Virus record (IMG/VR): IMGVR_UViG_3300035158_000483
Coordinates: 1-52,585 of that record
Reading direction: 5' to 3' (one strand)
DNA: 52,585 bases
Origin: a virus
Lineage: Duplodnaviria > Caudoviricetes
Shown: positions 2,567-52,585 of the stretch, one piece after another
How the letters are laid out: every line of letters starts with the position of its first letter
Numbering within the stretch: position 1 is the stretch's first letter
Position numbers and translations under genes: made by a program
The notes under the pieces: generated by a model
Seen by the model: only the letters and a program-made list of their open reading frames with translations
The model's database searches: none
Told to the model about the DNA's origin: nothing

Positions 2567-5415
2567 ACGAACTCCCTCAGATCCGCCTTGGCCACCAGTT
2601 CGGCTCTCTTGAAGCTCATCTGTACGGAATGCACGATGTAGTTACTGTAGACCTCCGGGCCGCCGTCGTGAGGCGTGTAGCGCATCTCAAGCGCATCCTC
2701 CGGCTCCCAGTGCAGTTGAGCAGCCGACGTCGGCTGCCGTGATCCAGCCTGCGACACAGCATCACGCACCATCCTCTGAGCCTCTTTGTAGGCTTCCTCT
2801 TCTTCCAGGCTCGGACAGTGGTAGGCCACAAAGTTGAGGCCGTACCGCTGCGCAGCCTCGTGGTCGATGTAGTCGCAGATCTCGGCGCCGATGATCCGGA
2901 TGTGCGTCGGTATGCGGTCCGTCTGTGTAATCCCATCCTCGTAGATGGACAGGTGCGTGCCGCCGGCGGGGAACTCAGCATCGCCGGCGCGGTGATCCGT
3001 GAACGTGCCAAGCCAGTGCTCCCATCCACTCAACTCCTCCTCGTCGTACTTGAGGGAAGCGTAACCGAAGCGGAGCACTGGCATCGCCTCGCGGTTGCCG
3101 CCCCCATCGGTCACGTACCGGACTGTACTGATGAACTTGATCCTCCTGTCCTCAATCGCGCGTTTCAGGCCGGCCAGGGCGCTGTTTCGGGAGTCTAAGA
3201 TCGTACTGTCCTTGAGCGCCCATAGCTGTGGCTGCGTGACGCGAATGTTGTCGGGGTCGTGGTCGCCGGTGCGAATGCACACGTAGCCGGCCTTGAGCAG
3301 CGCATCCTCCCATCCGTCTGTGTCGTAGCCGTAGACCGGGCCGCAGGCCAAGGTCTGCGCCTGGGCACCGTTGATGTAGGCGGTCACAAAGCGTTCGTGA
3401 GCAACAACGCGCACCGTCTTGCCGAGCATTGATTCGTCCAGCACGGCTTCATCTACCTTGACCCAACCAGAGGTGTCCTGACTCGTCTGCCAGAGCTGCA
3501 CCTTGGGTGTACCGGATACGTTGATGTAGTTGAATGCCAGTGCGGAGACCCCGGATAGTGATGTCCAGTCGCTGACTGACTTGGAACTGACTCGGAAGAT
3601 CACCTGGAATGTGTCATCATCGCCCCACTGGTCCAGCTCCTGGTGTAGCTCGAACGTCAGGTAGAAGTTTTTGACGTACAGGTCCTCGCCATCCACCGTG
3701 GGTATCCAGACGGTATCCCACTCGTTAAACGTGAACTCAGGGACGGTATAGTCCACGGACAGGGCTGTGTCGAAGTCGAGCACGCCGGCCTTGGCCGCGA
3801 TGTCCTTGAGCACCCATTCGAGCGTCTTGTCGTGCTCGTCGTCATAGGCCCACACGCCCTTGAGGACGATCTGATCGTTGTTGTGCTGCCGGACGGTCGT
3901 GCCGCGAGGATGGTCTTCCCCCTTGTCGCTCATTCCGCTACCGCGACTAGACACTTTGAACCCAGGTATCAGGAAGAAGTAGGATGCTCCCACATTGCCA
4001 CCGGACGAGGGCGTCAACGCATCCCAGTCCTCTTCTTTGCAATGACCGATTGTGATCTTGTCTACCCCGCCATCTACTGTCCAGGCAGTAATCTCTTCGG
4101 TAACTCCCAATCCGCCGCCGTCCATCACGCACAAGAGCCAACCGTACCCATCACCATCATTGCTCCAGTTAGAACCAGCAGTCTCTCGGGCAGATTCAGT
4201 CTGGCTTTTGAGGACCTGTCCGGAGACACGCTCTGTCATCATTGAGTAGTGCGAACGCCAATCGCTTTGGGTGACCTGCTCAAGCTCCATCTCCTCCTCA
4301 CCCATATGCAAGGGGGCACCGCCTTCCTCGAACCATTCGTAAGTGTCCTTGTTGGAAAAGCCGGAAGCCTCACCGTGATCGTCCGGCTCCGAGTCGTAGC
4401 TGTCCCAAGGCCCTTCGGTTTCGTCCGGCCACTGCCCCAGGTCCCGCGCTAGATGCCTCTCAGCAGCTCGGACGTGCATCACCTTGGTTTCCGGGACGGA
4501 AATGTTGCAGATGATCCCCACCTTGCCCCGATCGAAGCTCCAACCGCTGTACGCTTCGTCACCGTGGCGCACCATCTTGTGGGGTTGTCCCCACATATGC
4601 TCCAGTCTCGCCAGCTCTGTTCGCGTGGGCGAACCTGAGCTTGCGAAGTGGAACACGGTGGCAATCAACTGGCGACCGCGACGCTTCAGCTTCACCTCGA
4701 ACAGCTCGCCGTGCTTGAGGTTTGAGGTGTCAGACAAAGCCACAGACGCCAGCTCATACCACTTGTTGTTGTCGGCCTTCCCGTATCCGCTGGCGTTCCA
4801 GTCCTCGGCGCCGCGATAGAGCAGGTACAGCTTGCCAGTCACCGCGTCCACCCAGGCCGCGATGACGTTGTACTGGTCGAAGCCACAGCCGACGACGCCG
4901 AAGCCGTGCCCCAGGCGCTGAGGGCCGTGTGTGGGGGAGAGATCGTAGCCCATCCCGAACATCGCCCCACCAGCATCGTTCTCCGGCATAAACCGCGCCT
5001 TGACCGCGAAGTCCTTAGCGTCGAAGGGCTGTGTGGCGAAGGCAATCAGCGGCTTGTTGTAGGTCGCGAAAATCTGCCGGTTGTCCTCTAGCTCCTCTAT
5101 CTCGGTCTGGTCGATCTGCGCGGTCTCACCGTCCTCGCCCTCTACGGTGATCTGCCCCGCACTGACTGAGTACAGCTTGTCCACGAGGCCCAGGTTGTCA
5201 TCGTAGTGCTTGATCTGCGACAGCCACTGCCAGTCCTGGGAGCTGGCCCAGTCCCTGAGCATCCTCCAGATGATGTCCCTGCTCTTGAAGGAGAACTCGC
5301 GTGCTCCTGGTGCGTAGCGTGTGGGGATGGAGTCTATGGCCTCTACGGAGATGATGTCCATCTGCCCGTTGTATCCAGCCTTGCGCCAGAGCCATAGGCC
5401 GGGGAAGATCGCCAT
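2563..5415 (-). CDS. Large minor tail/baseplate protein (950 aa), probably the C-terminal part of a gene split by one in-frame TAA
   Basis: Acidic, Trp/Gly-rich, beta-type composition; located downstream of the tape measure; in frame with 5485..7227. Confidence 0.65.
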   Translation of the reverse strand: MAIFPGLWLWRKAGYNGQMDIISVEAIDSIPTRYAPGAREFSFKSRDIIWRMLRDWASSQDWQWLSQIKHYDDNLGLVDKLYSVSAGQITVEGEDGETAQIDQTEIEELEDNRQIFATYNKPLIAFATQPFDAKDFAVKARFMPENDAGGAMFGMGYDLSPTHGPQRLGHGFGVVGCGFDQYNVIAAWVDAVTGKLYLLYRGAEDWNASGYGKADNNKWYELASVALSDTSNLKHGELFEVKLKRRGRQLIATVFHFASSGSPTRTELARLEHMWGQPHKMVRHGDEAYSGWSFDRGKVGIICNISVPETKVMHVRAAERHLARDLGQWPDETEGPWDSYDSEPDDHGEASGFSNKDTYEWFEEGGAPLHMGEEEMELEQVTQSDWRSHYSMMTERVSGQVLKSQTESARETAGSNWSNDGDGYGWLLCVMDGGGLGVTEEITAWTVDGGVDKITIGHCKEEDWDALTPSSGGNVGASYFFLIPGFKVSSRGSGMSDKGEDHPRGTTVRQHNNDQIVLKGVWAYDDEHDKTLEWVLKDIAAKAGVLDFDTALSVDYTVPEFTFNEWDTVWIPTVDGEDLYVKNFYLTFELHQELDQWGDDDTFQVIFRVSSKSVSDWTSLSGVSALAFNYINVSGTPKVQLWQTSQDTSGWVKVDEAVLDESMLGKTVRVVAHERFVTAYINGAQAQTLACGPVYGYDTDGWEDALLKAGYVCIRTGDHDPDNIRVTQPQLWALKDSTILDSRNSALAGLKRAIEDRRIKFISTVRYVTDGGGNREAMPVLRFGYASLKYDEEELSGWEHWLGTFTDHRAGDAEFPAGGTHLSIYEDGITQTDRIPTHIRIIGAEICDYIDHEAAQRYGLNFVAYHCPSLEEEEAYKEAQRMVRDAVSQAGSRQPTSAAQLHWEPEDALEMRYTPHDGGPEVYSNYIVHSVQMSFKRAELVAKADLREFV

Positions 5416-5484: not shown

Positions 5485-7227
5485 TTATGCGGCCACCTTG
5501 GTTGTACCGCTGTTCTCGCTGCTCGCCGGCGAGAGGTTCCACGTCCACGATAGCAGGTCTAGGTCCGGCTTGATCTCCCTGATGATGTCGTCGTAGTGCC
5601 CGTCACCGATGAACCGGTAGCCGCCCATCAGCCAGGTGCGATGACCCCGCATCACCGTGCTCCCGCCAGGGTAGTAGCAATACTCGCCGTAGACGATGAT
5701 CTTGGAGCGTTGCGAGTCCGAGCAGAGGTATGAGTAGCGGTCCAGGCTCCAATGCACGCCATCCTTGGACCGCAGCGCCACGTCGTGGGCCTGAGCGTAA
5801 GCACCGGTCGTCCCCCCTCGGGAGATGCGCCCTGTGGCCCACATCACGTCCTCACCGGAGATGTCGGGGATGAAGCTCAGGTTGGAGATGCGAATGTAGT
5901 TGTGATCGTCCACGATGTCCAAGGGGACGATGGGCTTCGGGTCCGACCACACGCCGTCCTTATAGTTGATAATCAGGGGGAGACCGTTGGTGCGCGAGTT
6001 GACGACAATCACGTCGTGGTCACCCATCGTCTCGGCGTCGAACCACTGCAGGGCCGAGGCGTTGTAGTCCTCGTCCACCGGTATCTCGTGGGGACAGGGC
6101 TCGACTACGCGAGCCGCGTGGTTGATCCGGATGGTGATCGTGTCCACCTCTGCGACGCCATTGGTGATCTCGGCCAGGACCTGCAGGCGCACTCCGAAGA
6201 AGGAGCTGTTGACGATCTCAGGCGTGAAGGTGCCCTGCCACGTCCCATCACCTACAGGATCATCGAAGGTCAACGTCGTCTCCGTGTCCCATACGGCCCC
6301 ACCACTGGCCCCTGTGCCGATCTGGCCACCAACCCCGATGAAGTGTAGGTCTGACACGGTGATGCTCTGACCGGATCCCTTGCATTCGATCTCAACGCGC
6401 AGACTGGTGATGAAGTGATCCGAAGGGATGGAGAAGCCGAAGTCGGTCACTTCCAGGTAGTCACTGGCCTGAGTGCTCATATCTGGTGTCATACTCGCTG
6501 AGGCATAAGCGTCGTCCGAGCCGTACGTGTTCCCCACGTTCGTCCAGGCCGGCGTGTCCCCACCTGGATCAACGTTGGCGGCCGCTGATGGTGTGGCCGA
6601 GCTGGATGTTTCGTTGACGTGATCGTAGGTGATCTTTTTGAGCTGCAGGTACTTGAACGGGTCGTGCTCGTGCAGAGTTAGTTGGTACAGGTTACGCCAT
6701 CCCGCCGGCGCGAAGGCCACCTTGTCATCGCCCACCCCGTAGGTGTTGCCGAAGCTCTCCCCGCCAGTCAGATTCGTGCCCACCACGTCGTGGGTATACA
6801 CGTTGCCGCCGAGACCGTAGAACATTCGGACCCCGTTGCGCCAGGGCAGCCAGACCAACCCCATCCTCTGAGGAACCGAGGGGTAGAGGCCGCTCTGCCC
6901 ATACTCCCAGGACCAGAAGTTGGAGTTGGCTCCATCGCCCGTTTCCCAGGCCGTGTCCATATAGAAGCCCTGAACAGCATGCAGGTAGTATTTGCCGTTG
7001 ACATCATCGGCCCACACACGGTAGACGTTGTATGAGTCGGATTCGATGTCGAACGGACACTGCGCCACGCCGTCTGCATCGTACAGGGCAGGGAAGCCGG
7101 GTGCCCAGGCCGCGGTCTGCCAGTCTTGATCCAGGCGTATCTGCACGTCGCGTAGGACAATCTCGCTGTCGGGCTCGCGCACCGACTTAGCTTGTTCGGT
7201 CAGGACCTCTGATCGTATGTCTTTCAT
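5485..7227 (-). CDS. Minor tail protein (about 580 aa), possible N-terminal part of the split gene
   Basis: ATG 7227 (MKDIRSEV) overlaps the TGA of 7224..7631. Contains an Asp-box-like ALRSKDGVHWS. Confidence 0.65.
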   Translation of the reverse strand: MKDIRSEVLTEQAKSVREPDSEIVLRDVQIRLDQDWQTAAWAPGFPALYDADGVAQCPFDIESDSYNVYRVWADDVNGKYYLHAVQGFYMDTAWETGDGANSNFWSWEYGQSGLYPSVPQRMGLVWLPWRNGVRMFYGLGGNVYTHDVVGTNLTGGESFGNTYGVGDDKVAFAPAGWRNLYQLTLHEHDPFKYLQLKKITYDHVNETSSSATPSAAANVDPGGDTPAWTNVGNTYGSDDAYASASMTPDMSTQASDYLEVTDFGFSIPSDHFITSLRVEIECKGSGQSITVSDLHFIGVGGQIGTGASGGAVWDTETTLTFDDPVGDGTWQGTFTPEIVNSSFFGVRLQVLAEITNGVAEVDTITIRINHAARVVEPCPHEIPVDEDYNASALQWFDAETMGDHDVIVVNSRTNGLPLIINYKDGVWSDPKPIVPLDIVDDHNYIRISNLSFIPDISGEDVMWATGRISRGGTTGAYAQAHDVALRSKDGVHWSLDRYSYLCSDSQRSKIIVYGEYCYYPGGSTVMRGHRTWLMGGYRFIGDGHYDDIIREIKPDLDLLSWTWNLSPASSENSGTTKVAA

Positions 7228-7631
7228 ACCGCTACGAGCTCCACTTCGGCCCAAAAGACGGCATTGGTGCCGGATAGCATCGGGGATCGGTTCTCAAACT
7301 TCAAGTCCCCAACGAATACCACGTTGTGTGTCTTGCTGTCGTCCGTCTCGGTCAGCGTGAGCACGTTGTTGGGCGGGTTTCCGAGACGGAAGATCGCCTC
7401 CAGATCGGCCTTGGTGCCATAGCTGCCGCCATCCGGATCGGTCTCGTAGACCTTCAGCAGATACTTGAAGCGGTCAAGGACCGGCGCCGATTGCACATCA
7501 ATATGGCCAGTGACCGTCACCCTCACCGTGCTCTTCTTCTCGATGATCGGTCTGTGGCCCTGAGACAGGACCCGGAAGTGCTTCGGGTCTTTGGTCGGTG
7601 CGTCTAGTGTGATGTAGCCGTTGATCGCCAT
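7224..7631 (-). CDS. Distal tail-like protein (135 aa)
   Basis: Short ORF immediately after the tape measure, translationally coupled on both sides; call is by synteny. Confidence 0.5.
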   Translation of the reverse strand: MAINGYITLDAPTKDPKHFRVLSQGHRPIIEKKSTVRVTVTGHIDVQSAPVLDRFKYLLKVYETDPDGGSYGTKADLEAIFRLGNPPNNVLTLTETDDSKTHNVVFVGDLKFENRSPMLSGTNAVFWAEVELVAV

Positions 7632-10600
7632 TAGTAGGGTAGCCCCCCTTCACGCGGTGGCAGACCACTTGGCGTGTTGTAGTTGTCCAGGATCGCCCCG
7701 GCCTCTTGCAGCAATTCCACGAGTCCGTCGATGATCTCGTTGTTGAAGTCGGTGGCCATCGTCGCGATAGAGCGTTGGATATTGGTGTAGCGTTCTTGGA
7801 GTTCGCGCATCGCTTCAGCGTGCGCCGCGGACAAACCAGCCTGCCGCTCTTGGAACTCCAACTGCTCCGCCTGGTGCTCGCGCTGCAGGGTCGTGATCTT
7901 CTGCTGATGCTCGTACTCCTCCTGATAGGCCGCCTTCCGCTCCTCTAGCTGCTTCATTCGCAGGGCGTGGGACTCCTGCGCCTGGGAGACACGTAGGGCG
8001 TGCGACTCCTTGGCGTGCTCCTCGCGCATATCGAACTGCTCCAGGCGCAGTTCGTGGAGTTTCTGGTTACGCTCCTTGAGCTCCTCCAGGTTCTCCTTCT
8101 TGCGCTCGAAGTCCTCTTCTTCCCACTCACGGCGTTGCTCCATTCGATCTTTCTCTTCCTGCAGATCCGTGGTCTCCCACTTGCGCCGTACGACGTCGCG
8201 CTCCCGTTGCCGCATCAGCCGCTCACGCTGGTAGCCAGTGGCCCGACGAATGTTCTCGTCGTAGTCCTCCATTCTCCAACCGAACTCGATGGCGGAGCGC
8301 CCGAATTGCTGGTGCCAGTCCTGCATCTTCCAGCCGTAGACCGTCGCGGCGCGCTCGCGCTGTCTTTCCAGATCCTCGAACTTGTCCTCCATATCCTCTT
8401 GTTGGAAGCCCCAACGGGCCATATACATTCGCCTGCTGAGGCCCGTGCTCTCCAGGGTGTGTCGCAAGCTCAGGCCAGCGCTTGCCATCGTGTGCGCCAG
8501 CGACATATTGGCTTGCTGTGCTGAGAAGTTGAAGGCTCCAGTGTAGGCCCTGCCGCTGATCGGGCTGATACCGCCCATCTGCTGCACGTAGTTGAATCGC
8601 CTGCTCACGTCTTGCAGGCCCCACAGACTGTCGGGGCCTGGAGCGGTGGGCGTACCGCCGCCCCAAAGATATCGTCTCTGAGCAGCGATACGCTCCATCT
8701 GCAGGCCGGCTTGGGCCTGGGAATAGCGCGTGTTCTCAGCCGTCATCGCATCCTGGAGGCCCCACAGCGTGTTCATCCCCCAACCGCCGACGTAGTTGCC
8801 GTTGGCTCGTGCCTGAGTCAGCCGCTGCTGCGTCGCCCGTAGGGCTGATCCCCAAGAGGAGATGCTCATACCGCCGAATCCGGGCGTCGGGGCAATCTGG
8901 CCGATCATCCCGATGGCGTTGTTGAGGGCTGTGCCGGAGACGACGGGCAAGCCGCCACTCGCAGCTGCCTCGAAGATCTCGGTACGCCCGACACCCAGGC
9001 GAGTGGCCGCACCCCACCGGCCGGCGATCTCCATACGGCGATTGACCTCAGCCATCTCCAAGCCCTTCATTTGCGAGTAGGCTTTCTGCCAGTCCGTGCC
9101 CAAGTAGCCCATCTGCCCCGCTTGCTGTGACCACCACCGAGGCCCTCGGCCAGTGATTGCGCCGGACTGGATCACGTCGCTTTCCAAGATTTCTCTTGGC
9201 GTCATCTGCCCCACAGCGCCAGGCGTCATCTCGTAATACTCACCGATCATCTCGGCTGCTCGCTCTGCTGTGACACCCTCGGGACGATAGGTCTTCGCAG
9301 CGTACTGGATAGAAGCTGCTCGTTCAGCGGCTGTCATACCTTGGAACCTGCCAGCCTTCAGACGCCTTCCCTTGTAGTACAGCCTGGTGCCTTCGGGGGT
9401 CAGACCGAGTACGTTGGGGTCCTGCATCATAGCGACACGCGGGTCATTCGGCGTCCCCCGGCCAACCTCTGTCGGTACGTCGGCCATTATCGCCCCACCG
9501 ATCCCGCCCATCCCGCCAGCCGTAGCACTCATATGCGTGAGGTTGTAGAACCACCCTCTGTCCTCTCTGGTGCCTGCGACCTGCGGTTGTCTGTAGTATT
9601 TCTCCGTGGCCACGCCGCGCTTGCCCTGAGCGAGATTGAGGGCCATCTGCTCCTGGTCGCCGCGCATACTCTTGATGTAGCTGTAGAGCCCATAGCCACC
9701 AGCGGCCAGCGCAACGGGGAGCCCAACGCCGGTGAAGGAGCCGCCGAGCATCGTGGCCAGCGTGCCAGCTACCGCCCCTGTGCCGAGGGCAGGGAGGCCA
9801 ACGCCAGCCGCCGCACCGCCTGTCTGAGTCGTTAGGAACTGTTGAATGTCACCGTAGGCGCGATAGGCAGCCCTGCCCATTGCAACCTGTCCAGCTTTCT
9901 TCTGAGCTTGCGCCTCCATCAGCCCCATTCCGATCCCGCTTACGGGAGCCGCGCTTACGGGCATCGTGGCCGCGGCCGCGCCCATCATCGTCTGTGCGCT
10001 CTCAGCCGCAACGGGGATATTGCCCATCGCGACGCCACCGGTCATTCCCCATAGCCGGCGCATCATCATCAGCCGCCAACCAGAGGTCAACTGCCCCATC
10101 ACCCTATCCACGCCCTTCATCGGCCCCTCGGCGCCGAAGAACGAGGTCTTGAACCACTCGCCAATGCCCCCGCTAGGAGCTGCCCCTTCCAGGCTACGCG
10201 CCCAGTCATCCTCGCTGGCCTGGATCATCTGCCGGTAGGCGTCCGAGCCTTTCAGCCGCATAGCCGCTGTCGCAAGGCCCACGTCGCCGGTCTCCTGCGC
10301 CTGCTCGAGGGCGCTTCCGGTCACGCTCTGGACCTCCCTGGCCAGGCGCTCTGTCCATTGCTTCTGCGCGTCGCTCAGCTCCTGGGTGTTCTTCACAGCA
10401 GGCCCGACCTGCTTGCCCCAGTCCTCCAGATGATCGGCAAGCGTGCGCATACGCTTGTTGAGAAGCTTCGTGTTGTCGACAACGCCATCCTCTGCTACGC
10501 CGACACCGGCTTCCTCGATCGCAGGTATCATCTGTGCAAGCGACGTCTGCCCGATACCGTGGACGCTGGTGACACCCTTCTTGGTAGCGAATCCAGACGC

Positions 10601-13600
10601 GCCGGGCAGTCTCGCAATCTCCCGCCTGCGCTTGACGATGCGCCCGGCCAGCTTAGAGCCGACTCCCTTGACCTGCTGTAGTTGCTCTGCGGTGGCCGTG
10701 TTCAGGAAGCCGAATCCTGTTGTGGTCAATTCGGGTTCAGGTGGAACGACGCTCTCGAAACGCTGTTGCATCAGATCGGCCTGCGCCGTCGCGGCCATCA
10801 TCGGGATGGCCGAGCCGAGCTCGCCCTCCATATAGGTCTTGGCCGTGGTCACGTACTGTTGCATCTCCTGGTTGTTCGATTCGCCAAACCGTGTTGCGCC
10901 CTTCTGTGCGTGACCGAGCCAGGTGGCCATCTGGTTGGCCATCTGCCGGTAACCTGGCGTGACCTCGCCTTTGTCCTGGGTGATGGCTTGAGAGGCTTCT
11001 AGGAACTGAGGCCCGTACATCTCCAAGCCCTCTACGGCGGTCTTGAACTTGCTCTTCGACACGCCGAAGGCCCACTCCATCGTGTCCTTTAGGTCCTGAC
11101 CGAGCTTGGCCATCCCTTGTGGCACTGAAGGCCCTTCGTCTGGAGGGCTGCCAGGGGGGCCACCTGGAGGAGGGGGTGGGGCGGCCGGTGGAGCACCGGT
11201 CGTCCTTCTTGGCGGTCCTTGGCTCCCTGCGCCTCCAGCAATCGGCTCTGAGGGAAGTGGAGCTTCGCCGCTCTCCATAAACGCCTGCACGCTGTCATAG
11301 CCCTTCTGCTTGGCCATCCGAGACAGCATCACGGTCCGCTGCATTGCCTGCTCACGCGGATCGCCCTGAGACCAGCCGCCGATGCTCCGCGACGTAACCT
11401 CGCCACCGGTGCCTGTGCCGCCCAGGCTGACGCTGGATCCGGACATCATCCTCTCGACGTCCTCTTCGGGCATACCCATCTGACCGAGTATCTCACCAAA
11501 CAACCCGGGTGCTGCGTCCATCCCGGCCTGTACGCGAGCGGCCAGGGGGTCTGCGTCAGCACGCTTGGACAGTGAGGATCGCCAAGCCTTCGCCCTGGAC
11601 CTGATCGTGTTGAAGAGCTTGCGTTGGTACGGGTCAAGGTTGGAGACTATTTCGTTGACGACGTCTTCCTGCCCGCGACCGAGGGCCATCGCTGTGGCCG
11701 TGAGACCGATCGGGGTCTCTGTCTCCCACTCGCCGGTCAACCGAGCGCGTTGACGCGCCAGCTTGGCACGCTCGAAGTCATCCTCTGCACTGCGCCAACG
11801 CTTGACCAGCTCCTCAGCCTCTCCCCAGTTCCGTCTCGGAAACCCTAGCTTTGCGACCAACTTGGGGCTCAAGTGCTTGGCACTCATCAGCGCCGGCATA
11901 AACGCCTCCTGGATGCCGGCAGGACCAGCGGAGACGTTCAAGTTTGAGAAGTCTCCCTGGCCACCTGGGCCGCCCAATAGCTTGTCGAAGTAGGACGCGC
12001 CGCCCTTGTGCAAGGAGAGCGAGTTCAGCATCCCGACGACCTTCTGCAGCTCAGGCGGCAACTCCTTCGGCGTCTGTGTCTGGCCGTGAATCACTCCGAA
12101 GAACTTCTCGGCCTCTTCTCCGAGGCCCATCGAGCGAGCTACGTGCTCCACGTCCTCAAGGGAGGCGTACGTCGGGCCGATGTACTGTCGGAGTTTGTTC
12201 GTCCAGGCCATCGCAGACCCAACTGTCTCGGCGTCGAGCTCGTGAAGATTGCGGGGGTCCATCGCGGCCCTCAGCTCCTCCAGGTTGCGGAACTTGTGTC
12301 CCCTCGACAGATCCTGGCGCTGCATCTCTTCGACGGCGGTCTGCGCTTGCTTTGCGACGAAGCCTTCTGTTGCCCAGGGGATACCAGGCTCCCCACCAGG
12401 CGTCTGCTGGCCAGGGAGCTTGAGCCGGCCTTCTGGATCGACCTCGCCCATCATCAGGTTCCAGAACAGGTCCTCGTCAAAGTCGCGCCCTAGGGCCTCG
12501 GCTAGCTTGGGGTTGATGACCAGACCAGTACCCTCAGATAGCTGCATCCCGCGCTCTTTGGCGACTTCGGGGTGGATGACGTTGAACATACGGCTCAGGG
12601 GCCAGTCACCAGGCATCGGCTGTCCCATCACGATGGAACCGAGCTTCATCCCTTGTTTCCAACGATGCTCGAACTTGTACTCCCTGGTGCCCTCGATGTG
12701 CCGCTGCGATGGGTCCATCCCGTAGGCTCGCATCACGCGCTCAACCGGTGCTGTGATCTCCGTAGAGGCCAACGCAGAGCTGGAAAGCGCGGGACCGCCG
12801 AACGCTTTGGGGATTGGCGTGCCCAGGGCGCGTCTGAGGAACTTGCGGCTTTCAGCGAGCTTGGACTGTGCGCCGAGCGCCCCCTGTAGGGCTTCCCTAC
12901 GGGCCTTAGAGCCGACTTTCTCGGATAGGCCGAGGAGAGCCTTGCCATAGAGCTGCCCGTACGCCGTGGCCTCTTCTGTGGACAGGGAGCCGGACGCCAT
13001 AAAGCGCAGAGCGTGCGCCGGCGCGGCCAGTACGCCTTCCTCAGTAAGCAGCGGCTTCTGTCCCCACTTGGTCTGTGCCGCCTGTTGCATCACCGCACGC
13101 GCAAGCACGGCCTCTGTAGGCTCCTCACCCTCTTCACCAAGGGACATAGCGCGACCAGCCGCGACAGCTTCCTGGACCGCCTTGGGGTCAGGGGCGATAG
13201 CGTTCTTGGGATACCCGTGCGGGCCTCCGGAGATCGACGCTTTGATGATACCGCTGTACGCCTGCTTGAGGTCGTAGCCTTGCTTGCGAATCTCGCTGAA
13301 GTATTCAGCTACGCCAGGATGCTCAGCGAAGCGTTCCTTGGCAACGCGCTCCAGGCGCTGGACCTCGCGGAAGGGTAGGTGGGCAGGCTCTCGGAGCGCC
13401 CAACCGCGCCGGTACATCTGGAAGAACTTCCCCTTGAGGAAGCCCATCGGCTTCTTGCTCTCCAACCGGTAGTAGCCCTCTCCGATCTCAGTGCGGTCGA
13501 ACGTGTCCTCTGGAAACTGCCAGAGCTGAGACTTGTGGACACTGGGGATCGTGACCGGCTTCTCCGTGTAGAGGCCGCCCTCGCTCTCGGGACGCAGCTT

Positions 13601-15451
13601 CTCCTCGACGAAGGCGTTGTAGAGAGGCTCGCTGACATCTTTCCACGTCTTCTGTTTCATCCCCTCCATCGTGAGATCGTCGTACCCGCGCCGGCGCAGC
13701 GTGGACAGCATCTCGTTAGGGTGTGCCATCCAGTAGGAGTAGGCCAACTGTGTCGGCTCCTTGATCTGCGTCATCCCATAGCCCTTCTCGCCGTGGAAGG
13801 CCGAGGGGCTGCCGACGCCGCTCATAAACTTGCTCCAGAACGTCTTTGAGGACAGTCGGGCCGTCTCAGGGGATGCTCCTTGCTCCATCACAGCACGGAG
13901 CACGCGCCGATCCTCATACTCACCCTTGCGCTCGTTGTAGTAGCGAGCGTTGACGACGCTGTAGTCCTTGAGCTTCGCCCAGTCCCAGTTGCGGCCAAGG
14001 CCGATTTTCAACGGAGCCGCGCCCTCGAAAAGCTCAAGCTTCCCACTGTCACCGGTCCACTCCGTCCCGCGCTTGACGACCTTGGGTTCCATCCCTTCGG
14101 GGAGGGGGATATCGTAGGTGTGGGCGCGCCGTACGGAGCCGATCCAGCCCTGCGGCTGCATCTCTATACCCTCTGGCAGCCACTCGCCCAGGGAGATCAT
14201 CTGGTTGGTGATGACGCCACGGTTCCGGCGCATTGCTGTGGAGCCGAGGCGCAGCGGGGACTGTGCGGTGATGTTCTCTCCCGTCTCGGAGTAGTAGTCG
14301 AACATCTTGTAGACGCCCTGGAGCTGCGTGCGCTTGGCGATCTTGATCAGCCTCGAACGGTCCGAAGGGTCGTAGGGGGAGAGAATACTCTCGCCCTTGT
14401 GAGGTCCTGCCCACAGATCGGTGTAGACGCGGCTCGGCCACAAGCGGGATGCGCCTTGGCGCGTTACGTATCCTTCCGGCCAGTCCTCGGGGTCCATCCC
14501 CTCGACTGAGCCCTCGATGCCCAGGTCAGGTCCTGTCAGGCCGGTGCGGTAGCGGATCTGCTTCGCTGCTGGCAGGTACTTCCAGTGACTAGGCCCCTTC
14601 ATCGTGGCCACCACGCCGAGGCCGCCCTCTACGGGCCGGTAGTCAACCGGGGGCATTCCGCCGAACTCAGCGCCCAGGTTCTCCTTGAGGTAGGATGCGG
14701 CCTGGCCGGCGTTGGCACCTGCGAGATTAGCGCCGGCGAGGCGCTGCGAAAGCTCCTGTCTGGTGAGGCCCCATCCCATAAACGCACCGAGCATCTGCTC
14801 GTAGCCCTGTGTCCCAGGCTGTGCGGAAGGGTCGTAGGGGACTTTGCGGTGGACGTGAGCGCCTACTCTAGCGTTAGGGTCTGCAGACCGGACATTCTGC
14901 CGGAAACCGCTCAGGATACCGCTCTGCCGCTCGGCCTCTGCCTGGACCTGCTCAGGCGTCAGACCTCTGACACGTATGGAGCTAGGGGGTACAACCGATC
15001 TGTTGCGCTTGAGGATACGTCCAGCTCGGGACAGATTACCGCGTTGCAGGAAAGCCGTCGGATCTTCGGTCTGATAGCTCTCCGTGGGCGTAGCGGCCGG
15101 TTGCTGCAACCTGGTGGACTGGCCTCTACCGCTGTACACGCCGACGTCCAGAAACGTGGCCCACCGATCGGCGGCAGTCTTCTGTCGCTCGTGCTCGCGC
15201 ATCAGGTCCCGCTCGCGCAAGTCGAGCTCCATATCCAGTTCAGTTTCCGAGACGGAAGACGATGGGGCTGTGGCACGATCTAACGCGGCCTCGAAGGCCG
15301 TGACGCTCTCGCCCTCTTCTGGCGCGAAGTGGTGTCGAGCGCCTTGCGTGCGATCGTACTCTATTCCCTCTGGATCGTCGGGGTCATCGCCTTGGAAATG
15401 ACGGCCCCTGGCGTTCCAGAGCCAGTCGTCTTTTGAGTAGTCTCTCGTCAT
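7631..15451 (-). CDS. Tape-measure protein (2606 aa) with a putative N-terminal two-barrel RNA polymerase and an internal HhH domain
   Basis: Position after tail tube and chaperones; Ala/Gly-rich hydrophobic stretch and long C-terminal E/R/Q coiled coil. Contains GLVINPKLAEALGRDFDED (aa ~976-994), a Pro-rich linker and LNTATAEQLQQVKGVGSKLAGRIV...VHGIG. Confidence 0.75.
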   Translation of the reverse strand: MTRDYSKDDWLWNARGRHFQGDDPDDPEGIEYDRTQGARHHFAPEEGESVTAFEAALDRATAPSSSVSETELDMELDLRERDLMREHERQKTAADRWATFLDVGVYSGRGQSTRLQQPAATPTESYQTEDPTAFLQRGNLSRAGRILKRNRSVVPPSSIRVRGLTPEQVQAEAERQSGILSGFRQNVRSADPNARVGAHVHRKVPYDPSAQPGTQGYEQMLGAFMGWGLTRQELSQRLAGANLAGANAGQAASYLKENLGAEFGGMPPVDYRPVEGGLGVVATMKGPSHWKYLPAAKQIRYRTGLTGPDLGIEGSVEGMDPEDWPEGYVTRQGASRLWPSRVYTDLWAGPHKGESILSPYDPSDRSRLIKIAKRTQLQGVYKMFDYYSETGENITAQSPLRLGSTAMRRNRGVITNQMISLGEWLPEGIEMQPQGWIGSVRRAHTYDIPLPEGMEPKVVKRGTEWTGDSGKLELFEGAAPLKIGLGRNWDWAKLKDYSVVNARYYNERKGEYEDRRVLRAVMEQGASPETARLSSKTFWSKFMSGVGSPSAFHGEKGYGMTQIKEPTQLAYSYWMAHPNEMLSTLRRRGYDDLTMEGMKQKTWKDVSEPLYNAFVEEKLRPESEGGLYTEKPVTIPSVHKSQLWQFPEDTFDRTEIGEGYYRLESKKPMGFLKGKFFQMYRRGWALREPAHLPFREVQRLERVAKERFAEHPGVAEYFSEIRKQGYDLKQAYSGIIKASISGGPHGYPKNAIAPDPKAVQEAVAAGRAMSLGEEGEEPTEAVLARAVMQQAAQTKWGQKPLLTEEGVLAAPAHALRFMASGSLSTEEATAYGQLYGKALLGLSEKVGSKARREALQGALGAQSKLAESRKFLRRALGTPIPKAFGGPALSSSALASTEITAPVERVMRAYGMDPSQRHIEGTREYKFEHRWKQGMKLGSIVMGQPMPGDWPLSRMFNVIHPEVAKERGMQLSEGTGLVINPKLAEALGRDFDEDLFWNLMMGEVDPEGRLKLPGQQTPGGEPGIPWATEGFVAKQAQTAVEEMQRQDLSRGHKFRNLEELRAAMDPRNLHELDAETVGSAMAWTNKLRQYIGPTYASLEDVEHVARSMGLGEEAEKFFGVIHGQTQTPKELPPELQKVVGMLNSLSLHKGGASYFDKLLGGPGGQGDFSNLNVSAGPAGIQEAFMPALMSAKHLSPKLVAKLGFPRRNWGEAEELVKRWRSAEDDFERAKLARQRARLTGEWETETPIGLTATAMALGRGQEDVVNEIVSNLDPYQRKLFNTIRSRAKAWRSSLSKRADADPLAARVQAGMDAAPGLFGEILGQMGMPEEDVERMMSGSSVSLGGTGTGGEVTSRSIGGWSQGDPREQAMQRTVMLSRMAKQKGYDSVQAFMESGEAPLPSEPIAGGAGSQGPPRRTTGAPPAAPPPPPGGPPGSPPDEGPSVPQGMAKLGQDLKDTMEWAFGVSKSKFKTAVEGLEMYGPQFLEASQAITQDKGEVTPGYRQMANQMATWLGHAQKGATRFGESNNQEMQQYVTTAKTYMEGELGSAIPMMAATAQADLMQQRFESVVPPEPELTTTGFGFLNTATAEQLQQVKGVGSKLAGRIVKRRREIARLPGASGFATKKGVTSVHGIGQTSLAQMIPAIEEAGVGVAEDGVVDNTKLLNKRMRTLADHLEDWGKQVGPAVKNTQELSDAQKQWTERLAREVQSVTGSALEQAQETGDVGLATAAMRLKGSDAYRQMIQASEDDWARSLEGAAPSGGIGEWFKTSFFGAEGPMKGVDRVMGQLTSGWRLMMMRRLWGMTGGVAMGNIPVAAESAQTMMGAAAATMPVSAAPVSGIGMGLMEAQAQKKAGQVAMGRAAYRAYGDIQQFLTTQTGGAAAGVGLPALGTGAVAGTLATMLGGSFTGVGLPVALAAGGYGLYSYIKSMRGDQEQMALNLAQGKRGVATEKYYRQPQVAGTREDRGWFYNLTHMSATAGGMGGIGGAIMADVPTEVGRGTPNDPRVAMMQDPNVLGLTPEGTRLYYKGRRLKAGRFQGMTAAERAASIQYAAKTYRPEGVTAERAAEMIGEYYEMTPGAVGQMTPREILESDVIQSGAITGRGPRWWSQQAGQMGYLGTDWQKAYSQMKGLEMAEVNRRMEIAGRWGAATRLGVGRTEIFEAAASGGLPVVSGTALNNAIGMIGQIAPTPGFGGMSISSWGSALRATQQRLTQARANGNYVGGWGMNTLWGLQDAMTAENTRYSQAQAGLQMERIAAQRRYLWGGGTPTAPGPDSLWGLQDVSRRFNYVQQMGGISPISGRAYTGAFNFSAQQANMSLAHTMASAGLSLRHTLESTGLSRRMYMARWGFQQEDMEDKFEDLERQRERAATVYGWKMQDWHQQFGRSAIEFGWRMEDYDENIRRATGYQRERLMRQRERDVVRRKWETTDLQEEKDRMEQRREWEEEDFERKKENLEELKERNQKLHELRLEQFDMREEHAKESHALRVSQAQESHALRMKQLEERKAAYQEEYEHQQKITTLQREHQAEQLEFQERQAGLSAAHAEAMRELQERYTNIQRSIATMATDFNNEIIDGLVELLQEAGAILDNYNTPSGLPPREGGLPY

Positions 15452-19643: not shown

Positions 19644-20692
19644 CTAGCCACCGGTCGAAGCGCGGCCCTTGAAGCGGACGTTGCCAGCGGAGTAGACAAC
19701 CTCGAAGCGATCCGGGAAGAAAGGCTGGTACTTGATGTACGCATCCCAGGAGAACCGCTTCATCGCCATCGCGTCATCGACCGTGGGCGGGGCGTGTAGG
19801 GTAGGGGGCTGAGTGACGCCAGCCACAATGCCCTTCGCGCCACCCAAGCAGACCGTCGCGTGGACATGCCGGCCGAGCGTGACGTAACCATAGATGCCGG
19901 TGTCAACCTCGGTGTCATAGTCCTTCTGCAGCGGCCGGTCGAAGCTCAAGCGGTCGTCGTCCGTGTTCACGGAGACCAGACGCCGGTTGGTCAGCGAGCC
20001 TTCGGTGTAATCCACACCGTCGCTCACGCCGTAGTCGCTGGTCTTGGTCTTGTGAATCGTGACGATCTCGCCCTCGTGGCCGGAGAACGCGCTCGCCTGC
20101 CCAGTGTCGAGCTGGACGTAGCGGGTGTTGGCCGGCTGACCAGGCGTAATCGTGTCGTCCACCTTCGCAGCAGCGCCCGTACCTGCGGGGGCCGAGGAGA
20201 CGATATCGGCTGTCTGCGTCACAGGACCGCAGTTGTAGAGCGTGCAGCGCGTGGTCTGGATGAACCGCGTGGCCTTGAGGCGACCAACCTCGATATCCAT
20301 CATCAGCTTGCCGAAGTCGCCAGCGTACTCAGCCGCTTCCTTGAACTCCCCACCGGCCTCGTTGCGGATGTCGTAGAGGACACCAGGGGACGTGATTGCG
20401 ATCATATCCCCGGTCGGGCCGGTTGGGTTGTTGGCGAACGGAGCCTCGCGATAGCTCATACCGAGCCAAATCTGATCCAACAGGCTCGGTTCGAAGAGGT
20501 CACCGTTGCCGAGATCGTTGAAACCATCGTTGGAGGCGTCCCCGCAGTAGAGCTCGTAGGGACCCTCGAGGAAGGCGTTGCGAGCCAGGATGTCCATATG
20601 ATCGGCAATGGACCGGGCCATCAGGTCCCGAATGATGGGAATCAGCCCCGCACGACCGCTGTTGCGCCGCCAGTAGTTAACATAATCATCAT
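19644..20692 (-). CDS. Major capsid protein, exon 2 (N4-gp56-like family; spliced product 452 aa)
   Basis: Capsid-like motifs LMARSIADHMDILARN, ITSPGVLYDIR, IEVGRLKATRFIQT and DDAMAMKRFSW. Joins exon 1 in frame after intron removal. Confidence 0.85.
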
Positions 20693-21011
20693 CGCTTGTG
20701 TTACTACGCACTCAGTGCGCGGCTAGGTCATTTCTGCCTAGCTCTCACGCTCTCACGTGAGGCCGGACTATATCTTCATCCAATCAGGATGCCGGGTACT
20801 CTAAGTCGGTTCTCCGATAGTCTCTGAACCTTCCCCTGGTCTAGGGGCTCGGCTGCTGATTGCCCAATCCCTGAGATTCTCAAGCCTTCGCGCTCACCGT
20901 TTCCAGTCATCGCTGTGGCTCTCAAGGCTCTAAGGGGGTTCCAGCAATTCACCCGATTGCCCTCTTACGCTAGGGCCATCGCACCTTGCGGTGCGAGCAA
21001 GCTCGAAATGA
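20693..21011 (-). ncRNA. Group I intron, 319 nt, no homing endonuclease ORF
   Basis: Minus strand shows P GAATTGCTGGAA, Q GGCAATCAGCAG, R GTTCAGAGACTA and S AAGATATAGTCC. P1 is CAAGU/GCUUG with a U.G wobble at the 5' splice site, the terminal G is at 20693, and P10 pairs UCAU with AUGA. Confidence 0.93.
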
Positions 21012-21321
21012 ACTTGTGCAGCGCGACCTTGCCCATGTGGTGCTCGGTCGTGATCGTCCGCTGGTTGCTGTCGGTGTACATCGCGTGAGCCCACAGATCG
21101 CGCAGGCCGACAGCATCGGTGTTGGGCTCCAGGTCGTAGACCTGCGAGAAGGTCACCTGGTTGGTGTCCCGACCGCGGAGGTCGACGACAGTTGGAACGA
21201 ATCGAGTGAACACATTGCGCGTGCGCCACACGTCCAGCAGCAGCGGGACGTACCACGCTCGCGTCTTCTTCGTGATATCCCCCCAAGGGTTATCACTATA
21301 GGTTCCGGCGAATGTAGCCAT
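21012..21321 (-). CDS. Major capsid protein, exon 1
   Basis: MATFAGTYSDNPW...TEHHMGKVALHK with an AGAGGAG ribosome-binding site, directly after the scaffold gene. Confidence 0.85.
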
Positions 21322-21420
21322 TTGTGAGTCTCCTCTGTGTGTGAATCAACCTCGCACCGTGCGAGGCTATACCGGTCACAAATGGCTCTCCAACGACCTA
21401 GGGAGATATTCAGTTAGTAG

Positions 21421-24208: not shown

Positions 24209-24464
24209 CTCTGCCCCCCGACCTTCTCCAGTCATAGCCGTCGCTGATCTCCAAGACGCTATGCGCTGAAGCGCGTGTGAAAAGTGCTTTGAATTTCTTG
24301 GCCAAGAAATGCCTTCCGCTTTTGCAGAGCCAGTCGCGTAGGGTAGGGCGGCGGAGTTCGACGCCGTTGACCAGCAAGTAGACACCGTCCTGCGTCTCAA
24401 GCCACTCGACATCTTCCGTCACGGAAAGCTCCTCCTCGGTGTAACTGGCTATTTCACGCATCAT
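24192..24464 (-). CDS. Hypothetical protein (90 aa)
   Basis: ATGA-coupled to the TerL stop. Confidence 0.55.
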   Translation of the reverse strand: MMREIASYTEEELSVTEDVEWLETQDGVYLLVNGVELRRPTLRDWLCKSGRHFLAKKFKALFTRASAHSVLEISDGYDWRRSGGRDGWRR

Positions 24465-26365
24465 CTTCTCCTTACGTGCAGAGAGCGGCTCCTGTGGAGC
24501 GAATGGCGCATCGAGGGCCTTCTGTCACGGCTCATAGCCAGCAGAGGGATCGTCCAGTGATTCGATTGCTCCCCGGCCATCTCGCCGGTGAAGATGCGCC
24601 GGCGCATCCAACCGCCTGCGATCTGCAGGGCGCTTACGATGTCCTGGGTGAGCTTCTTGTCAGGGAAGGCGTATTGAGCGAGCTGCCGGCGCAGGCCCCG
24701 GATGTAGGGATACTTCAGCAGGCCACGCTGCATAATGAGCTTGATCGCGTTGTGGTAGGCCTGCTTCTTGCCGGTCAGGTTCATCCCCTCGACCAGGATG
24801 CCTTCGCCCACATCGGAGAAGGCGAGCTCGTCCATCGCCTTCTGCGAGCCGGTCGCATCGAACGCGGCGCCGACCGGTTGATAGAGGTTCATCGCGGTCT
24901 TGAAGCTCGACAGGAAGGGGATGTAGGAGCCGCCTCCGTACACCCAGTCGAACATACGGAGCGTTGCCGGATGCTCAGGGAAGCCGGTGATGTCCAGGAC
25001 CAGGACCACGCCGGCGTTGCGTCTAGGCGGTTCGCCCTGGCCAGGATCTCCGACGACCAGATAATCCCGGCCACGGTCAGGCGGCATCATAAGCTGGTGG
25101 CATCCTGCAAGGCTCCTCTCCTCATAAGCGAAGCCGGCCTTACCTTCCTTTATGCCCTGGTGACACAGTCGATTCAGGCTCCGGTCCTCGCACTGCTCGA
25201 TGACAGCACGCGCAAACTCCTCACACGTCCCCATCGGCCTCGCGCCTTGCATCTCGATGGCGCGCAGCTCGGGTGGCAGGGCCTCGCGCATTAGCCTCAC
25301 GTCCCGCTTGGTCAGGGACTCGTTCATACTGGTGGTGATCGTCATCGACAGGTACGTCTCGGGGTCCTTCTTGGCCTTGTCGTAACGCTCCCATAGCCAG
25401 GGGACGTCCGTCGCGGTGGTGATCACCGACAGGCGGCCGAGGCGCGGCCGGTTCGTGGGTCGCTCGCCACGTAGGCGCGTGCGCATAATCTGGACCGTGC
25501 TCGGTGAGTCGATGAAGCCGAACTCGTCACCGTTCATCCAGTCGCCCTCCCAGCCGCGCAGCTTCTCGATCTCGTCAGCCGCGCTCATAAACTCCAGCTT
25601 GCTGTTGTTGTAGAGCTCGATGGTGGGGTAGGGGCGTCGCACAGCACGCTTGATGAACCGTTGATACCGGTTGCCGTCCGCACGCTCGATGATGGCCTGG
25701 TACATCAGCTTGGCCTGCCAGAACGTGGGAGCCACGTTCATAAACTTGAAGTAAGGCGTGAGCGCAGCCCAGGTAGCAGCAGAAAAGGCGACCATAGAGG
25801 TCTTGCCGGAGTTGTGATGGACAAGACCGTGCGCCACATAGTTGTTGTAGATGGGGACGTGAAAGTCGTAGAACTCAGATTGGTCGAGAGCCTCGATAGA
25901 GCTGATGGGGTCCGGCCCGCCTGTGGAGCAGAGAGGCGATCCGACGTGAAGGTCCTCAAGACGGCGATAACCGTTAGGCGTGAGGAATGCGTGCCGGCCA
26001 GTGACCTCGATCTCGCGGCCGCTGGCCATTGTGACGCGGTAGATTTCCTCTACGCCCTTGACGTAGGGTTCACCCGCTTGCGCAGGGGTGAACCCATCTC
26101 CGGTCCACGCAAGGACCGTGTGCGTTCCCTCGATCTCTTCTACGGGCGTCTCTGTGTCTGAGACAGGATCGTAGATCAACGTCCCAGGCGCGAGACAGCC
26201 AACGCCGCCGATAATCGTCACCTCGGGCTGCGACGACACGTGGAGGGGCGTCTGATAGTCGTGAAATGCCCATCCACCGAAGTAGTAGTCGGTGAAGTAG
26301 GAAGGATTCTCCGTGGCCGCCTTCCTGAATATGGCCTTATCGTCCGTGGTCAGCCGGTAGGCCAC
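24461..26365 (-). CDS. terL: Terminase large subunit containing an intein
   Basis: Walker A GGVG|SGKT is split by the intein. Also has LRGWEGDWMNGDEFG (Walker B) and nuclease motifs VVGDPG, AFDATG and QDIVSAL. Confidence 0.92.
   Translation of the reverse strand: MAYRLTTDDKAIFRKAATENPSYFTDYYFGGWAFHDYQTPLHVSSQPEVTIIGGVGCLAPGTLIYDPVSDTETPVEEIEGTHTVLAWTGDGFTPAQAGEPYVKGVEEIYRVTMASGREIEVTGRHAFLTPNGYRRLEDLHVGSPLCSTGGPDPISSIEALDQSEFYDFHVPIYNNYVAHGLVHHNSGKTSMVAFSAATWAALTPYFKFMNVAPTFWQAKLMYQAIIERADGNRYQRFIKRAVRRPYPTIELYNNSKLEFMSAADEIEKLRGWEGDWMNGDEFGFIDSPSTVQIMRTRLRGERPTNRPRLGRLSVITTATDVPWLWERYDKAKKDPETYLSMTITTSMNESLTKRDVRLMREALPPELRAIEMQGARPMGTCEEFARAVIEQCEDRSLNRLCHQGIKEGKAGFAYEERSLAGCHQLMMPPDRGRDYLVVGDPGQGEPPRRNAGVVLVLDITGFPEHPATLRMFDWVYGGGSYIPFLSSFKTAMNLYQPVGAAFDATGSQKAMDELAFSDVGEGILVEGMNLTGKKQAYHNAIKLIMQRGLLKYPYIRGLRRQLAQYAFPDKKLTQDIVSALQIAGGWMRRRIFTGEMAGEQSNHWTIPLLAMSRDRRPSMRHSLHRSRSLHVRRR
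25811..26197 (-). mobile_element. Mini-intein (129 aa) in TerL
   Basis: Begins CLAPGTLI, has block B IEVTGRHAFLT and block F FYDFHVPIYNNYVAHGLVHHN, followed by Ser+1. Too short to hold a LAGLIDADG domain. Confidence 0.95.
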
Positions 26366-29229: not shown

Positions 29230-29541
29230 ATGAAGGTCTCGACGCACGTCCACGAGAAGGATCAGGTGAAGCGCGTCAAGGACTACGGCTATCCGCTGGT
29301 CCAGGACGCCTTACGCGAGGTCAAGCAGACGTTGATCTCGGAGCTGGAGACTGACTGCCCGGAGAAGAGTATCGCTGTTGCTCTTCGTGACTGGTCGGGC
29401 AAGGCTATTCACAAGACTGGGCATTCCACAGGCACGGACTTGGTGGCCATTGTCCGGCGTGGCGTAGTGCACACGTTCCTCAACGCTGACAACTTGCACA
29501 CGGACGCTCTCAACGTGACCCGCCTGATCTTCGCCCCATAG
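29230..29541 (+). CDS. Hypothetical early protein (103 aa)
   Basis: GGAGG ribosome-binding site before ATG 29230 (MKVSTHVHEK). Confidence 0.7.
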   Translation: MKVSTHVHEKDQVKRVKDYGYPLVQDALREVKQTLISELETDCPEKSIAVALRDWSGKAIHKTGHSTGTDLVAIVRRGVVHTFLNADNLHTDALNVTRLIFAP

Positions 29542-29646
29542 TCGATAACCAGGGTGCTATGCCCTGGTACGTGTGGTTGGTGACCACGCGCTGATGAGAC
29601 AGCCATAGGGGCGCTCACAGTATCACCCCATTGGAGGTAAATCACA

Positions 29647-52474: not shown

Positions 52475-52585
52475 GTCAACTACCCCACCCCGAGGGGTGG
52501 GGCTTGGGGAGGCAAGACCCTGACTAAGAGTTGACTAGCCTAAGCCCGTTTCCGCAAGGATATAGTCAAGGGCTACGTTACACGG
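52475..52585 (+). ncRNA. 5' part of an IS200/IS605 IscB-type omegaRNA (HEARO-like), truncated by the window edge
   Basis: GTCAACTACCCCACCC-CGAG-GGGTGGGGCTTG...GTTGACTAGCCTAAG...CTACGTT, with GTCAAC/GTTGAC pairing. Confidence 0.75.

Follow-up and report, generated by a model that had tools for sequence, protein, structure and literature searches.

An uncultured tailed phage with a 319-nt group I intron, free of open reading frames, in its major capsid gene

Reading frames and the predicted spliced product

We analyzed a 52,585-nucleotide (nt) stretch of DNA, IMG/VR virus record IMGVR_UViG_3300035158_000483 (hereafter, the window), which is a linear fragment from a metagenome assembly and belongs to an uncultured tailed phage; its completeness is estimated at 63%. 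The major capsid gene of this phage, located on the minus strand, is very probably interrupted between bases 1 and 2 of codon 104 by a self-splicing 319-nt group I intron, the removal of which would produce an mRNA for a 452-amino acid (aa) protein.

Read without splicing, the gene appears as two unnamed open reading frames (ORFs), one of 118 aa that starts with ATG (20965..21321) and one of 355 aa that starts with GTG (19644..20711). Excision of 21011..20693 in silico yields 1359 nt, i.e., 452 codons with zero internal stops. The joined frame reads MGKVALHK-Y-DDYVNYWRRNS; its TAT codon is divided T|AT between the exons (...CAC AAG T / AT GAT GAT TAT...), and the ligated exons are predicted to read ...CACAAGT|ATGATGAT at the junction. 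The end of the intron at G20693 is the only boundary that yields a colinear product of this length. The sense frames of the intron contain 9, 7 and 5 stops, and the longest ORF within it (58 aa) lacks a Pfam match. A preliminary description of this locus, made from the sequence alone, had proposed two capsid ORF fragments separated by an ORF-less element with a terminal G, the joining of 21012 to 20692, and the misleading of automatic annotation; all of its coordinates are correct, and these claims stand. The components of the split gene are as follows.

21330..21335, minus strand: Shine-Dalgarno-like GAGGAG, with a spacer of 8 nt to the capsid ATG (21321), read directly from the sequence
21012..21321, minus strand: exon 1 (310 nt), codons 1-103 and base 1 (T) of codon 104; tblastn places aa 1-104 of the product here
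20693..21011, minus strand: group I intron (Rfam RF00028), boundaries set by the colinearity of homologues and by an intronless allele
19644..20692, minus strand: exon 2 (1049 nt including the stop, 19644-19646), opening with bases 2-3 of codon 104

Ribozyme match and secondary structure

The group I intron family of Rfam, RF00028, matches positions 21021..20744 on the minus strand with a score of 76.3 bits (gathering score, 50 bits; E 1.1e-17), and the match covers model positions 1-253 of 253. The identification as a group I intron, first made from the sequence alone, is thus confirmed over the full length of the model. RF00028 is the sole Rfam family found at the gathering level within the 52.6-kb window, and a second intron was not found there even with a more permissive Rfam scan. 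The consensus stretches of the model align in the window as AAUUGCUGGAA, AAUCAGCAGCC, GUUCAGAGACUA and AAGAUAUAGUCC, which we take to be, in that order, the elements classically named P, Q, R and S; stretches of this type had been noticed in the preliminary description. The whole element folds with a free energy of -136.3 kcal/mol (z -4.78), and none of 100 shuffled sequences was equally stable.

The P1 helix is formed by CAAGU|UC, i.e., CAAGU of the exon and UC of the intron, with the guide GAGCUUG, and it places the last exon base, U21012, opposite a G; one of 200 shuffles folded as well as this hairpin. A U.G pair at the 5' splice site is a hallmark of group I introns, and the pair that had been postulated for this site is supported by both the fold and the shuffles. 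Three sources were combined to place the helices listed below: the Rfam alignment, the free-energy fold and a comparative fold.

20998..21016, minus strand: P1 hairpin, guide GAGCUUG at 21004..20998 (free-energy fold, shuffles)
20981..20994, minus strand: P2 hairpin, GCACC/GGUGC (Rfam alignment and fold)
20959..20976, minus strand: extra hairpin GCCCU/AGGGC after P2, named P2.1 in this analysis, an insertion relative to the Rfam model
20951..20955 with 20797..20793, minus strand: P3, 5' strand CGGGU paired with ACCCG (Rfam alignment)
20829..20947, minus strand: P4-P5-P5abc-P6 domain with a long P5 extension (Rfam alignment; compensatory changes in eight related introns)
20766..20822, minus strand: catalytic core, consisting of P7, a small hairpin, the 3' strand of P3, and P8 (Rfam alignment, comparative fold)
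20822..20818 with 20770..20766, minus strand: P7, 5' GACUA paired with 3' UAGUC (Rfam alignment, comparative fold)
20817..20806, minus strand: small hairpin UCGG/CCGA between P7 and the 3' strand of P3
20791..20777, minus strand: P8
20744..20761, minus strand: P9 hairpin (Rfam alignment; compensatory changes in relatives at three of the five outer pairs)
20721..20742, minus strand: P9.1 hairpin, a 22-nt motif
20706..20720, minus strand: P9.2 mini-hairpin

Thirteen nt follow P9.2 up to the terminal G20693. The comparative fold, obtained with RNAalifold from eight related introns, predicts 54 pairs, 24 of which show compensatory double changes; these are found in P5, the P5 extension, P6 and P9. 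The underlying alignment was made by MAFFT with no fitting to a covariance model, and the P9.1 pairs are invariant in it because the sequences were chosen by the P9.1 motif.

Intronless homologues and DNA alleles

From 2568 candidates, the protein search with exon 2 retained 40 at E <= 0.001. Ten homologues were fetched. Alignment to intronless capsid homologues had been suggested as a check in the preliminary description, and all nine of the fetched proteins that span the splice site proved gap-free across the junction, i.e., colinear across HK|YDD. P0001 (452 aa, 90% identical) is intronless and reads ...GKVALHKFDDYINYW..., with HKFDDYINYW at the site; P0003 (452 aa, 73% identical), also intronless, has HKYDDYITYW at the same position; and P0004 (448 aa) continues through the junction without a gap. 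The tenth protein, P0002 (355 aa, 87% identical), starts with VRSNKSDDDY, which resembles MRSNTSDDDY, the start of the artefactual exon 2 ORF in the window; by this resemblance, P0002 probably represents a second intron-bearing allele.

The region was further compared with contigs from four public DNA runs. In run X1, the contigs show one difference from the window over 21012-21250 and two differences over 20351-20678, give zero cover on 20698-21002, and join 21012 to 20678 via exactly 14 letters, T|AC GAC GAC TAC ATC, that encode Y D D Y I. As read from these contigs, X1 carries a natural allele precisely without the 319 nt, and the intronless homologues are colinear with the GKVALHK-Y-DDYVNYW reading first obtained by joining the two ORFs. 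A 1169-nt contig of run X4 extends over 20715-21036 and crosses the junction of exon 1 and the intron; beyond the region of P9.1 and P9.2, it continues with 837 letters unlike the window. Since this contig is independent, the 5' junction is not an assembly artefact of the record.

Close relatives of the capsid were sought among 50,697 phage records. Megablast of the 2-kb region gave no match, and neither did tblastn of exon 1 and of exon 2 at the settings used; at those search settings, there is no close capsid relative within the cultured phages. A scan of metagenomes with a protein pattern derived from the homologue alignment matched 232 stretches, none of which was confirmed as a relative.

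Identity of the interrupted gene

The product of the interrupted gene was assigned by structure prediction and gene context. A profile search of 1.84 billion representatives found 630 relatives of the capsid family at E <= 0.001, and 21 of the best 150 were fetched. The AlphaFold model of P0001, based on an alignment of 77 full-length sequences, has a predicted local distance difference test score (pLDDT) of 86.1 and a predicted template modeling score of 0.84; an earlier model from a 14-sequence alignment was poor (pLDDT 49.4) and was not used. Foldseek comparison of the P0001 model with PDB resulted in 306 matches at E <= 0.001. All of the matches listed are phage major capsid proteins with a probability of 1.00, including those of SPO1, P22, CUS-3, cyanophage A4, Ralstonia GP4 and N4, although the N4 chains are not the best of them. 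The gene order in the window is terminase large subunit, portal, an acidic 247-aa scaffold-like ORF, the capsid gene, and a head-tail adaptor gene. Because of the modelled HK97 fold of P0001 and the position in the head module, the assignment as the major capsid gene, which coincides with that of the preliminary description, is sound.

Sequence profiles alone support this assignment weakly, and the fold evidence concerns P0001, which is 90% identical, and not the joined product of the window itself. Pfam has no match on either ORF fragment or on P0001, and the match to PHROG 1357 'major head protein' is weak (E 8.3e-7). The N4-gp56 family model TIGR04387 scores 22.3 bits with exon 2 and 20.4 bits with P0001 and thus fails its cut-off of 60. 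The N4-gp56 family name is attached at source to two homologues; with scores so far under the cut-off, the protein is therefore a distant relative of this family rather than a member of it. Phage_capsid_3 of Pfam was found in 2 of 14 homologues, and a sequence-profile search of PDB produced only marginal capsid matches (E 0.039). A sub-threshold match of the ORF fragments to Melibiase_C of Pfam was rejected as spurious.

In the P0001 model, strand 93-102 ends and a short helix (103-108) begins at codon 104, before the long helix 120-145. The corresponding motif, YGGKxAxHK|YD, lies at the end of the beta-hairpin ahead of this long helix. The motif region is conserved among the 77 aligned sequences at K98 (63/77), H102 (48/77), D105 (64/77) and W111 (61/77).

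Proposed splicing pathway and its alternatives

In the proposed pathway, the capsid gene would be transcribed as a single pre-mRNA, in which the intron would fold into the P1-P9.2 architecture. Free guanosine would then attack after U21012, held in the U.G pair by the guide GAGCUUG, and the freed end of exon 1 would attack after the terminal G20693, ligating the exons into an mRNA for the full-length HK97-fold capsid protein. We infer both the occurrence and the efficiency of this splicing from DNA.

Several points count against this explanation. Eight runs were found to hold the stretch, and none of the eight is on record as RNA. The X1 contigs that provide the intronless allele have a depth of only ~3. 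The P10 helix, which the preliminary description had reported without reservation, is only weakly borne out: by eye, it comprises ~3 pairs (exon 2 UGA with intron UCG, adjoining the guide), compared with 5 bp (UUGAC/GUCAG) in the related intron of locus L095 (see below). An alternative P10 of four pairs, AUGA/UCAU, can also be drawn by eye, but it uses the wrong strand of P1.

Among the other explanations considered, the one that survives best is that splicing proceeds only with help, which would make the capsid output conditional; the helper could be an RNA chaperone of the host, or a maturase or endonuclease whose gene lies in the 37% of the genome that was not sequenced. We consider such a requirement unlikely. 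In vivo, many group I introns depend on protein cofactors, and an ORF-less intron with relatives that bear nuclease-like ORFs would fit this pattern; on the other hand, the core and the peripheral helices are complete, and the window has no match to LAGLIDADG_1, GIY-YIG or HNH_3, and its only HNH match, at 49875-49925, is sub-threshold with 15.8 bits. Assisted splicing is a variant of the explanation proposed above rather than a true alternative to it.

A true alternative is that this group I intron has decayed and lost the ability to splice, which would leave the capsid gene a pseudogene and the phage defective or a remnant. The weak P10, the homing endonuclease ORF that was either lost or never present, the incomplete linear record, and the lack of an RNA run among those holding the stretch could all be reconciled with decay. 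Nevertheless, decay is highly improbable, given that (i) at 76 bits, the core of this intron outscores each of the seven above-cut-off matches found in the related loci searched (57-73 bits), (ii) both exons are intact and ~99% identical to the intronless allele, and the protein is 87-90% identical to its relatives, and (iii) the remaining head module is intact. Intact and conserved exons are not what is expected of a dead gene.

Finally, an assembly chimera or another kind of insertion, such as an intein, an insertion sequence (IS) element or a frameshift, could be invoked on account of the metagenomic origin of the record and of the intein that the terminase of the same phage does hold, but this explanation is effectively refuted by the independent X4 contig that crosses the 5' junction and by the P0002 record that shows the same split. 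An intein at this site is ruled out by the stops in all three sense frames of the insert, and an IS element by the match of the insert to a ribozyme model, not to a transposase.

Related introns and other interrupted capsid genes

The 22-nt P9.1 hairpin was found unchanged in 19 viral-contig stretches and in 84 metagenome stretches, counted with no de-duplication and with at least three contigs common to both sets. One of these stretches is locus L095, where the capsid gene, ~40% identical to that of the window at the protein level, is interrupted at AAG T|TT GAC, i.e., at the same nucleotide and in the same codon phase. The L095 intron is 1016 nt long, matches the Rfam model with 57.2 bits, is 76% identical to the window intron over 307 aligned columns, and forms its P1 with the same guide GCUUG and a U.G pair. 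Its P9.2 stem, CUGUACA/UGUACAG, the counterpart of the P9.2 mini-hairpin in the window, surrounds an ORF that runs antisense to the intron (5973-6650 on the minus strand of L095). This antisense ORF contains two zinc-ribbon-like CxxC pairs and matches phrog_5046 'HNH endonuclease' (E 9.4e-7); its score with LAGLIDADG_1 (20.3 bits) is under the cut-off of 23.1. By these matches, its product appears to be nuclease-like and of uncertain family. The window intron has no homing endonuclease ORF inside and thus does not qualify as a mobile, endonuclease-encoding intron.

Split tblastn matches were obtained in five of 78 capsid loci, including that of the window, or in four of 77 capsid-bearing viral contigs. 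At locus L056, with a capsid ~36% identical, a group I match of 31.5 bits is under the cut-off, and the best splice reading lies 4 nt upstream of that in the window. At locus L050, ~936 nt are inserted near aa 135 (2065-3000), and L072 has two inserts, of ~947 nt near aa 94 (2054-3000) and of ~503 nt near aa 190 (3286-3788). For none of the L050 and L072 inserts did Rfam give a match, even at E <= 1; they may represent introns that escape recognition or insertions of another kind. The split match at L070 looks like a frameshift or deletion. At L157, the 22-nt motif occurs at the edge of a capsid match with 22% identity, and there is no Rfam match at the gathering level.

The same family of introns, with the identical P9.1 hairpin, is present in other genes of unrelated viral contigs as well: in a ribonucleotide reductase gene (L114), in a DNA polymerase gene with two introns, one of them followed by a homing-endonuclease-like ORF (L087), and in a tape-measure gene with two introns (L083). 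In cultured phages, 200 records share the intron core (the P3-P7 region), with identities given as 60-95% over part of its length and as 69-77% over 42-64% of the intron, and none of these 200 reaches an intron coverage of at least 80%.

Some of the capsid-family proteins are short and end just past the motif with unrelated tails: P0156 (...VLHK+SKVCGLAVM), P0163 (...AYHK+HKQHCAAA) and P0164 (...ALH+RRTCALAA). Another protein, P0022, starts just ahead of ...TYWAENG. From their sequences, these four look like exon fragments, read into introns, which hints that the split is common in the family.

Exon 2 footprint and intron history

The window differs from the X1 allele in a short tract immediately downstream of the intron.

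20679..20692, minus strand: the opening 14 nt of exon 2, with five T-ending codons in a row, differing from the X1 allele at 6 of 14 positions

Over the rest of both exons, the identity of the two alleles is ~99%. The codons of the tract are TAT GAT GAT TAT GTT, in a gene with a third-position GC content of 0.80. At the protein level, DDYV is found in the window and in P0002, and DDYI in the X1 allele and in the three closest intronless proteins, P0001, P0003 and P0004. The tract may be a co-conversion tract that arrived with the intron from a donor of lower GC content. This interpretation is weakened by its basis, a single intronless allele and codon usage only, and selection for endonuclease resistance or for P10 pairing would look similar.

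The history of the insertion would then include (i) endonuclease-driven homing of the intron into the conserved capsid motif YGGKxAxHK|YD, (ii) the transfer of a short stretch of the donor exon along with the intron, and (iii) the absence from the present intron of an endonuclease ORF that a relative has kept in P9.2. More broadly, we tentatively put forward a joint scenario, which could well be wrong: one mobile intron lineage, marked by the invariant P9.1 hairpin, may repeatedly have homed into YGGKxAxHK|YD in genes whose capsid proteins are ~35-40% identical, with insertion at an identical nucleotide in at least two of these genes, and with the antisense P9.2 ORF gained or lost and a co-conversion footprint left in exon 2. 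If this scenario is true, the ORF-less copy in the window would be a hitch-hiker, mobilised, or protected from cleavage, upon co-infection by an endonuclease-bearing relative, and the capsid gene would be a battleground for marker exclusion between related phages.

Comparison with known introns in phage genes

The preliminary description treated the capsid gene as an unusual location for a phage group I intron, such introns being best known from DNA-metabolism genes. The location is less unusual than implied: capsid-gene introns of mycobacteriophage LittleE and lactococcal phage Tuc2009 are in print, as stated in PMC3706429. For this reason, phage capsid genes interrupted by a group I intron are an established kind of arrangement, of which the window copy is a new, clean, ORF-less example from an uncultured lineage.

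According to the same source, LittleE, a phage of Cluster J, contains an intron of ~819 bp in its major capsid gene with a leftward-transcribed HNH endonuclease gene, and its splicing was proven by reverse transcription PCR and by N-terminal sequencing across the junction (PMC3706429). Both LittleE and the window represent tailed phages with a high-GC genome and an interrupted major capsid gene; in both, exon 1 ends with U, the intron ends with G, and close relatives are intronless. The endonuclease ORF of LittleE is antisense, similar to the ORF of the L095 intron. The two systems differ in that the longer LittleE intron encodes an HNH endonuclease and is typed as 'most likely a group I', whereas the window intron is ORF-less and has a clear Rfam match; splicing is proven in LittleE and inferred from DNA in the window.

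For Tuc2009, which is cited in PMC3706429, the similarity is that a group I intron interrupts a phage's capsid subunit gene; this likeness is drawn from the description, and the host of Tuc2009 differs in being a low-GC Gram-positive bacterium. Lactococcus phages account for 10 of the 200 core-matching records, with none among the 25 records listed. In cultured phages, the core shared with the window intron occurs in Pseudomonas phage PAP02, Vibrio phage ICP1 and Streptococcus phage Str-PAP-1; in PAP02, an N4-like Litunavirus, it is flanked by two ORFs annotated as parts of the large subunit of RNA polymerase. Among the matches listed, the introns of cultured phages differ from that of the window in their host genes (RNA polymerase, or near the tape measure gene), and none of them is in a capsid gene.

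The introns in td, nrdB and nrdD of T4 and in SPO1's DNA polymerase gene resemble the window intron in ribozyme class, presence/absence polymorphism and association with homing endonucleases; these classical introns, listed in PMC3706429, interrupt DNA-metabolism genes, whereas that of the window interrupts a late structural gene. In jumbo gut phages, 2513 group I introns were reported in 136 of 139 genomes, with terminase, nrdD and polymerase genes among those interrupted, and paired metatranscriptomes for three further Jug phage genomes gave transcript support for 37 of 76 predicted introns, as given in PMC12880540.

The intron of the window does not open a new category, spliced capsid-gene introns having been described since at least 2013. 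Its significance is in part practical. Annotation splits the gene; therefore, capsid-based phage classification and protein clustering miss or mis-size such genes. The public protein P0002 is seemingly a fragment from such a split, and several short exon 1-like proteins may be so too. Since a virion contains hundreds of capsid subunits, the output of particles would depend on efficient ribozyme splicing of the late mRNA, if splicing occurs as predicted. In addition, the loci described here can serve as a natural series for following how introns move in uncultured phages. It comprises an allele lacking the intron, an intron free of ORFs, an intron with an endonuclease at the identical nucleotide of a distant capsid gene, and introns of this family in genes for polymerase, ribonucleotide reductase and the tape-measure protein.

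Other features of the window

The large terminase ORF (24461-26365, minus strand; 634 aa) holds a 129-aa mini-intein at residues 57-185 (25811-26197), which starts with CLAPGT, ends with VHHN followed by S, and interrupts the Walker A motif GGVG|SGKT. It matches Intein_splicing of Pfam (E 1.6e-9), and intein-bearing NCBIfam models were matched below threshold. The phage thus combines a capsid-gene intron with a terminase intein. The structural module also includes a 2606-aa ORF (7631-15451, minus strand), in which Pfam matches only helix-hairpin-helix motifs near residue 1600; it could encode a giant virion or ejection protein.

Two further matches to RNA families were observed on the plus strand. 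A type II hammerhead ribozyme match at 29540-29608 covers the full length of the model and is sub-threshold (31.5 vs 37 bits, E 0.016). At the end of the record (52475-52585), there is a partial, 3'-truncated match to the HEARO RNA (RF02033; 44 bits, positions 1-86 of 211, E 7.9e-6), an RNA associated with HNH endonuclease ORFs of the IS605 family. The plus strand also encodes a 1372-aa fusion (36706-40824) of a DUF6094/N6 methyltransferase, a ResIII/Helicase_C helicase and DUF6573.

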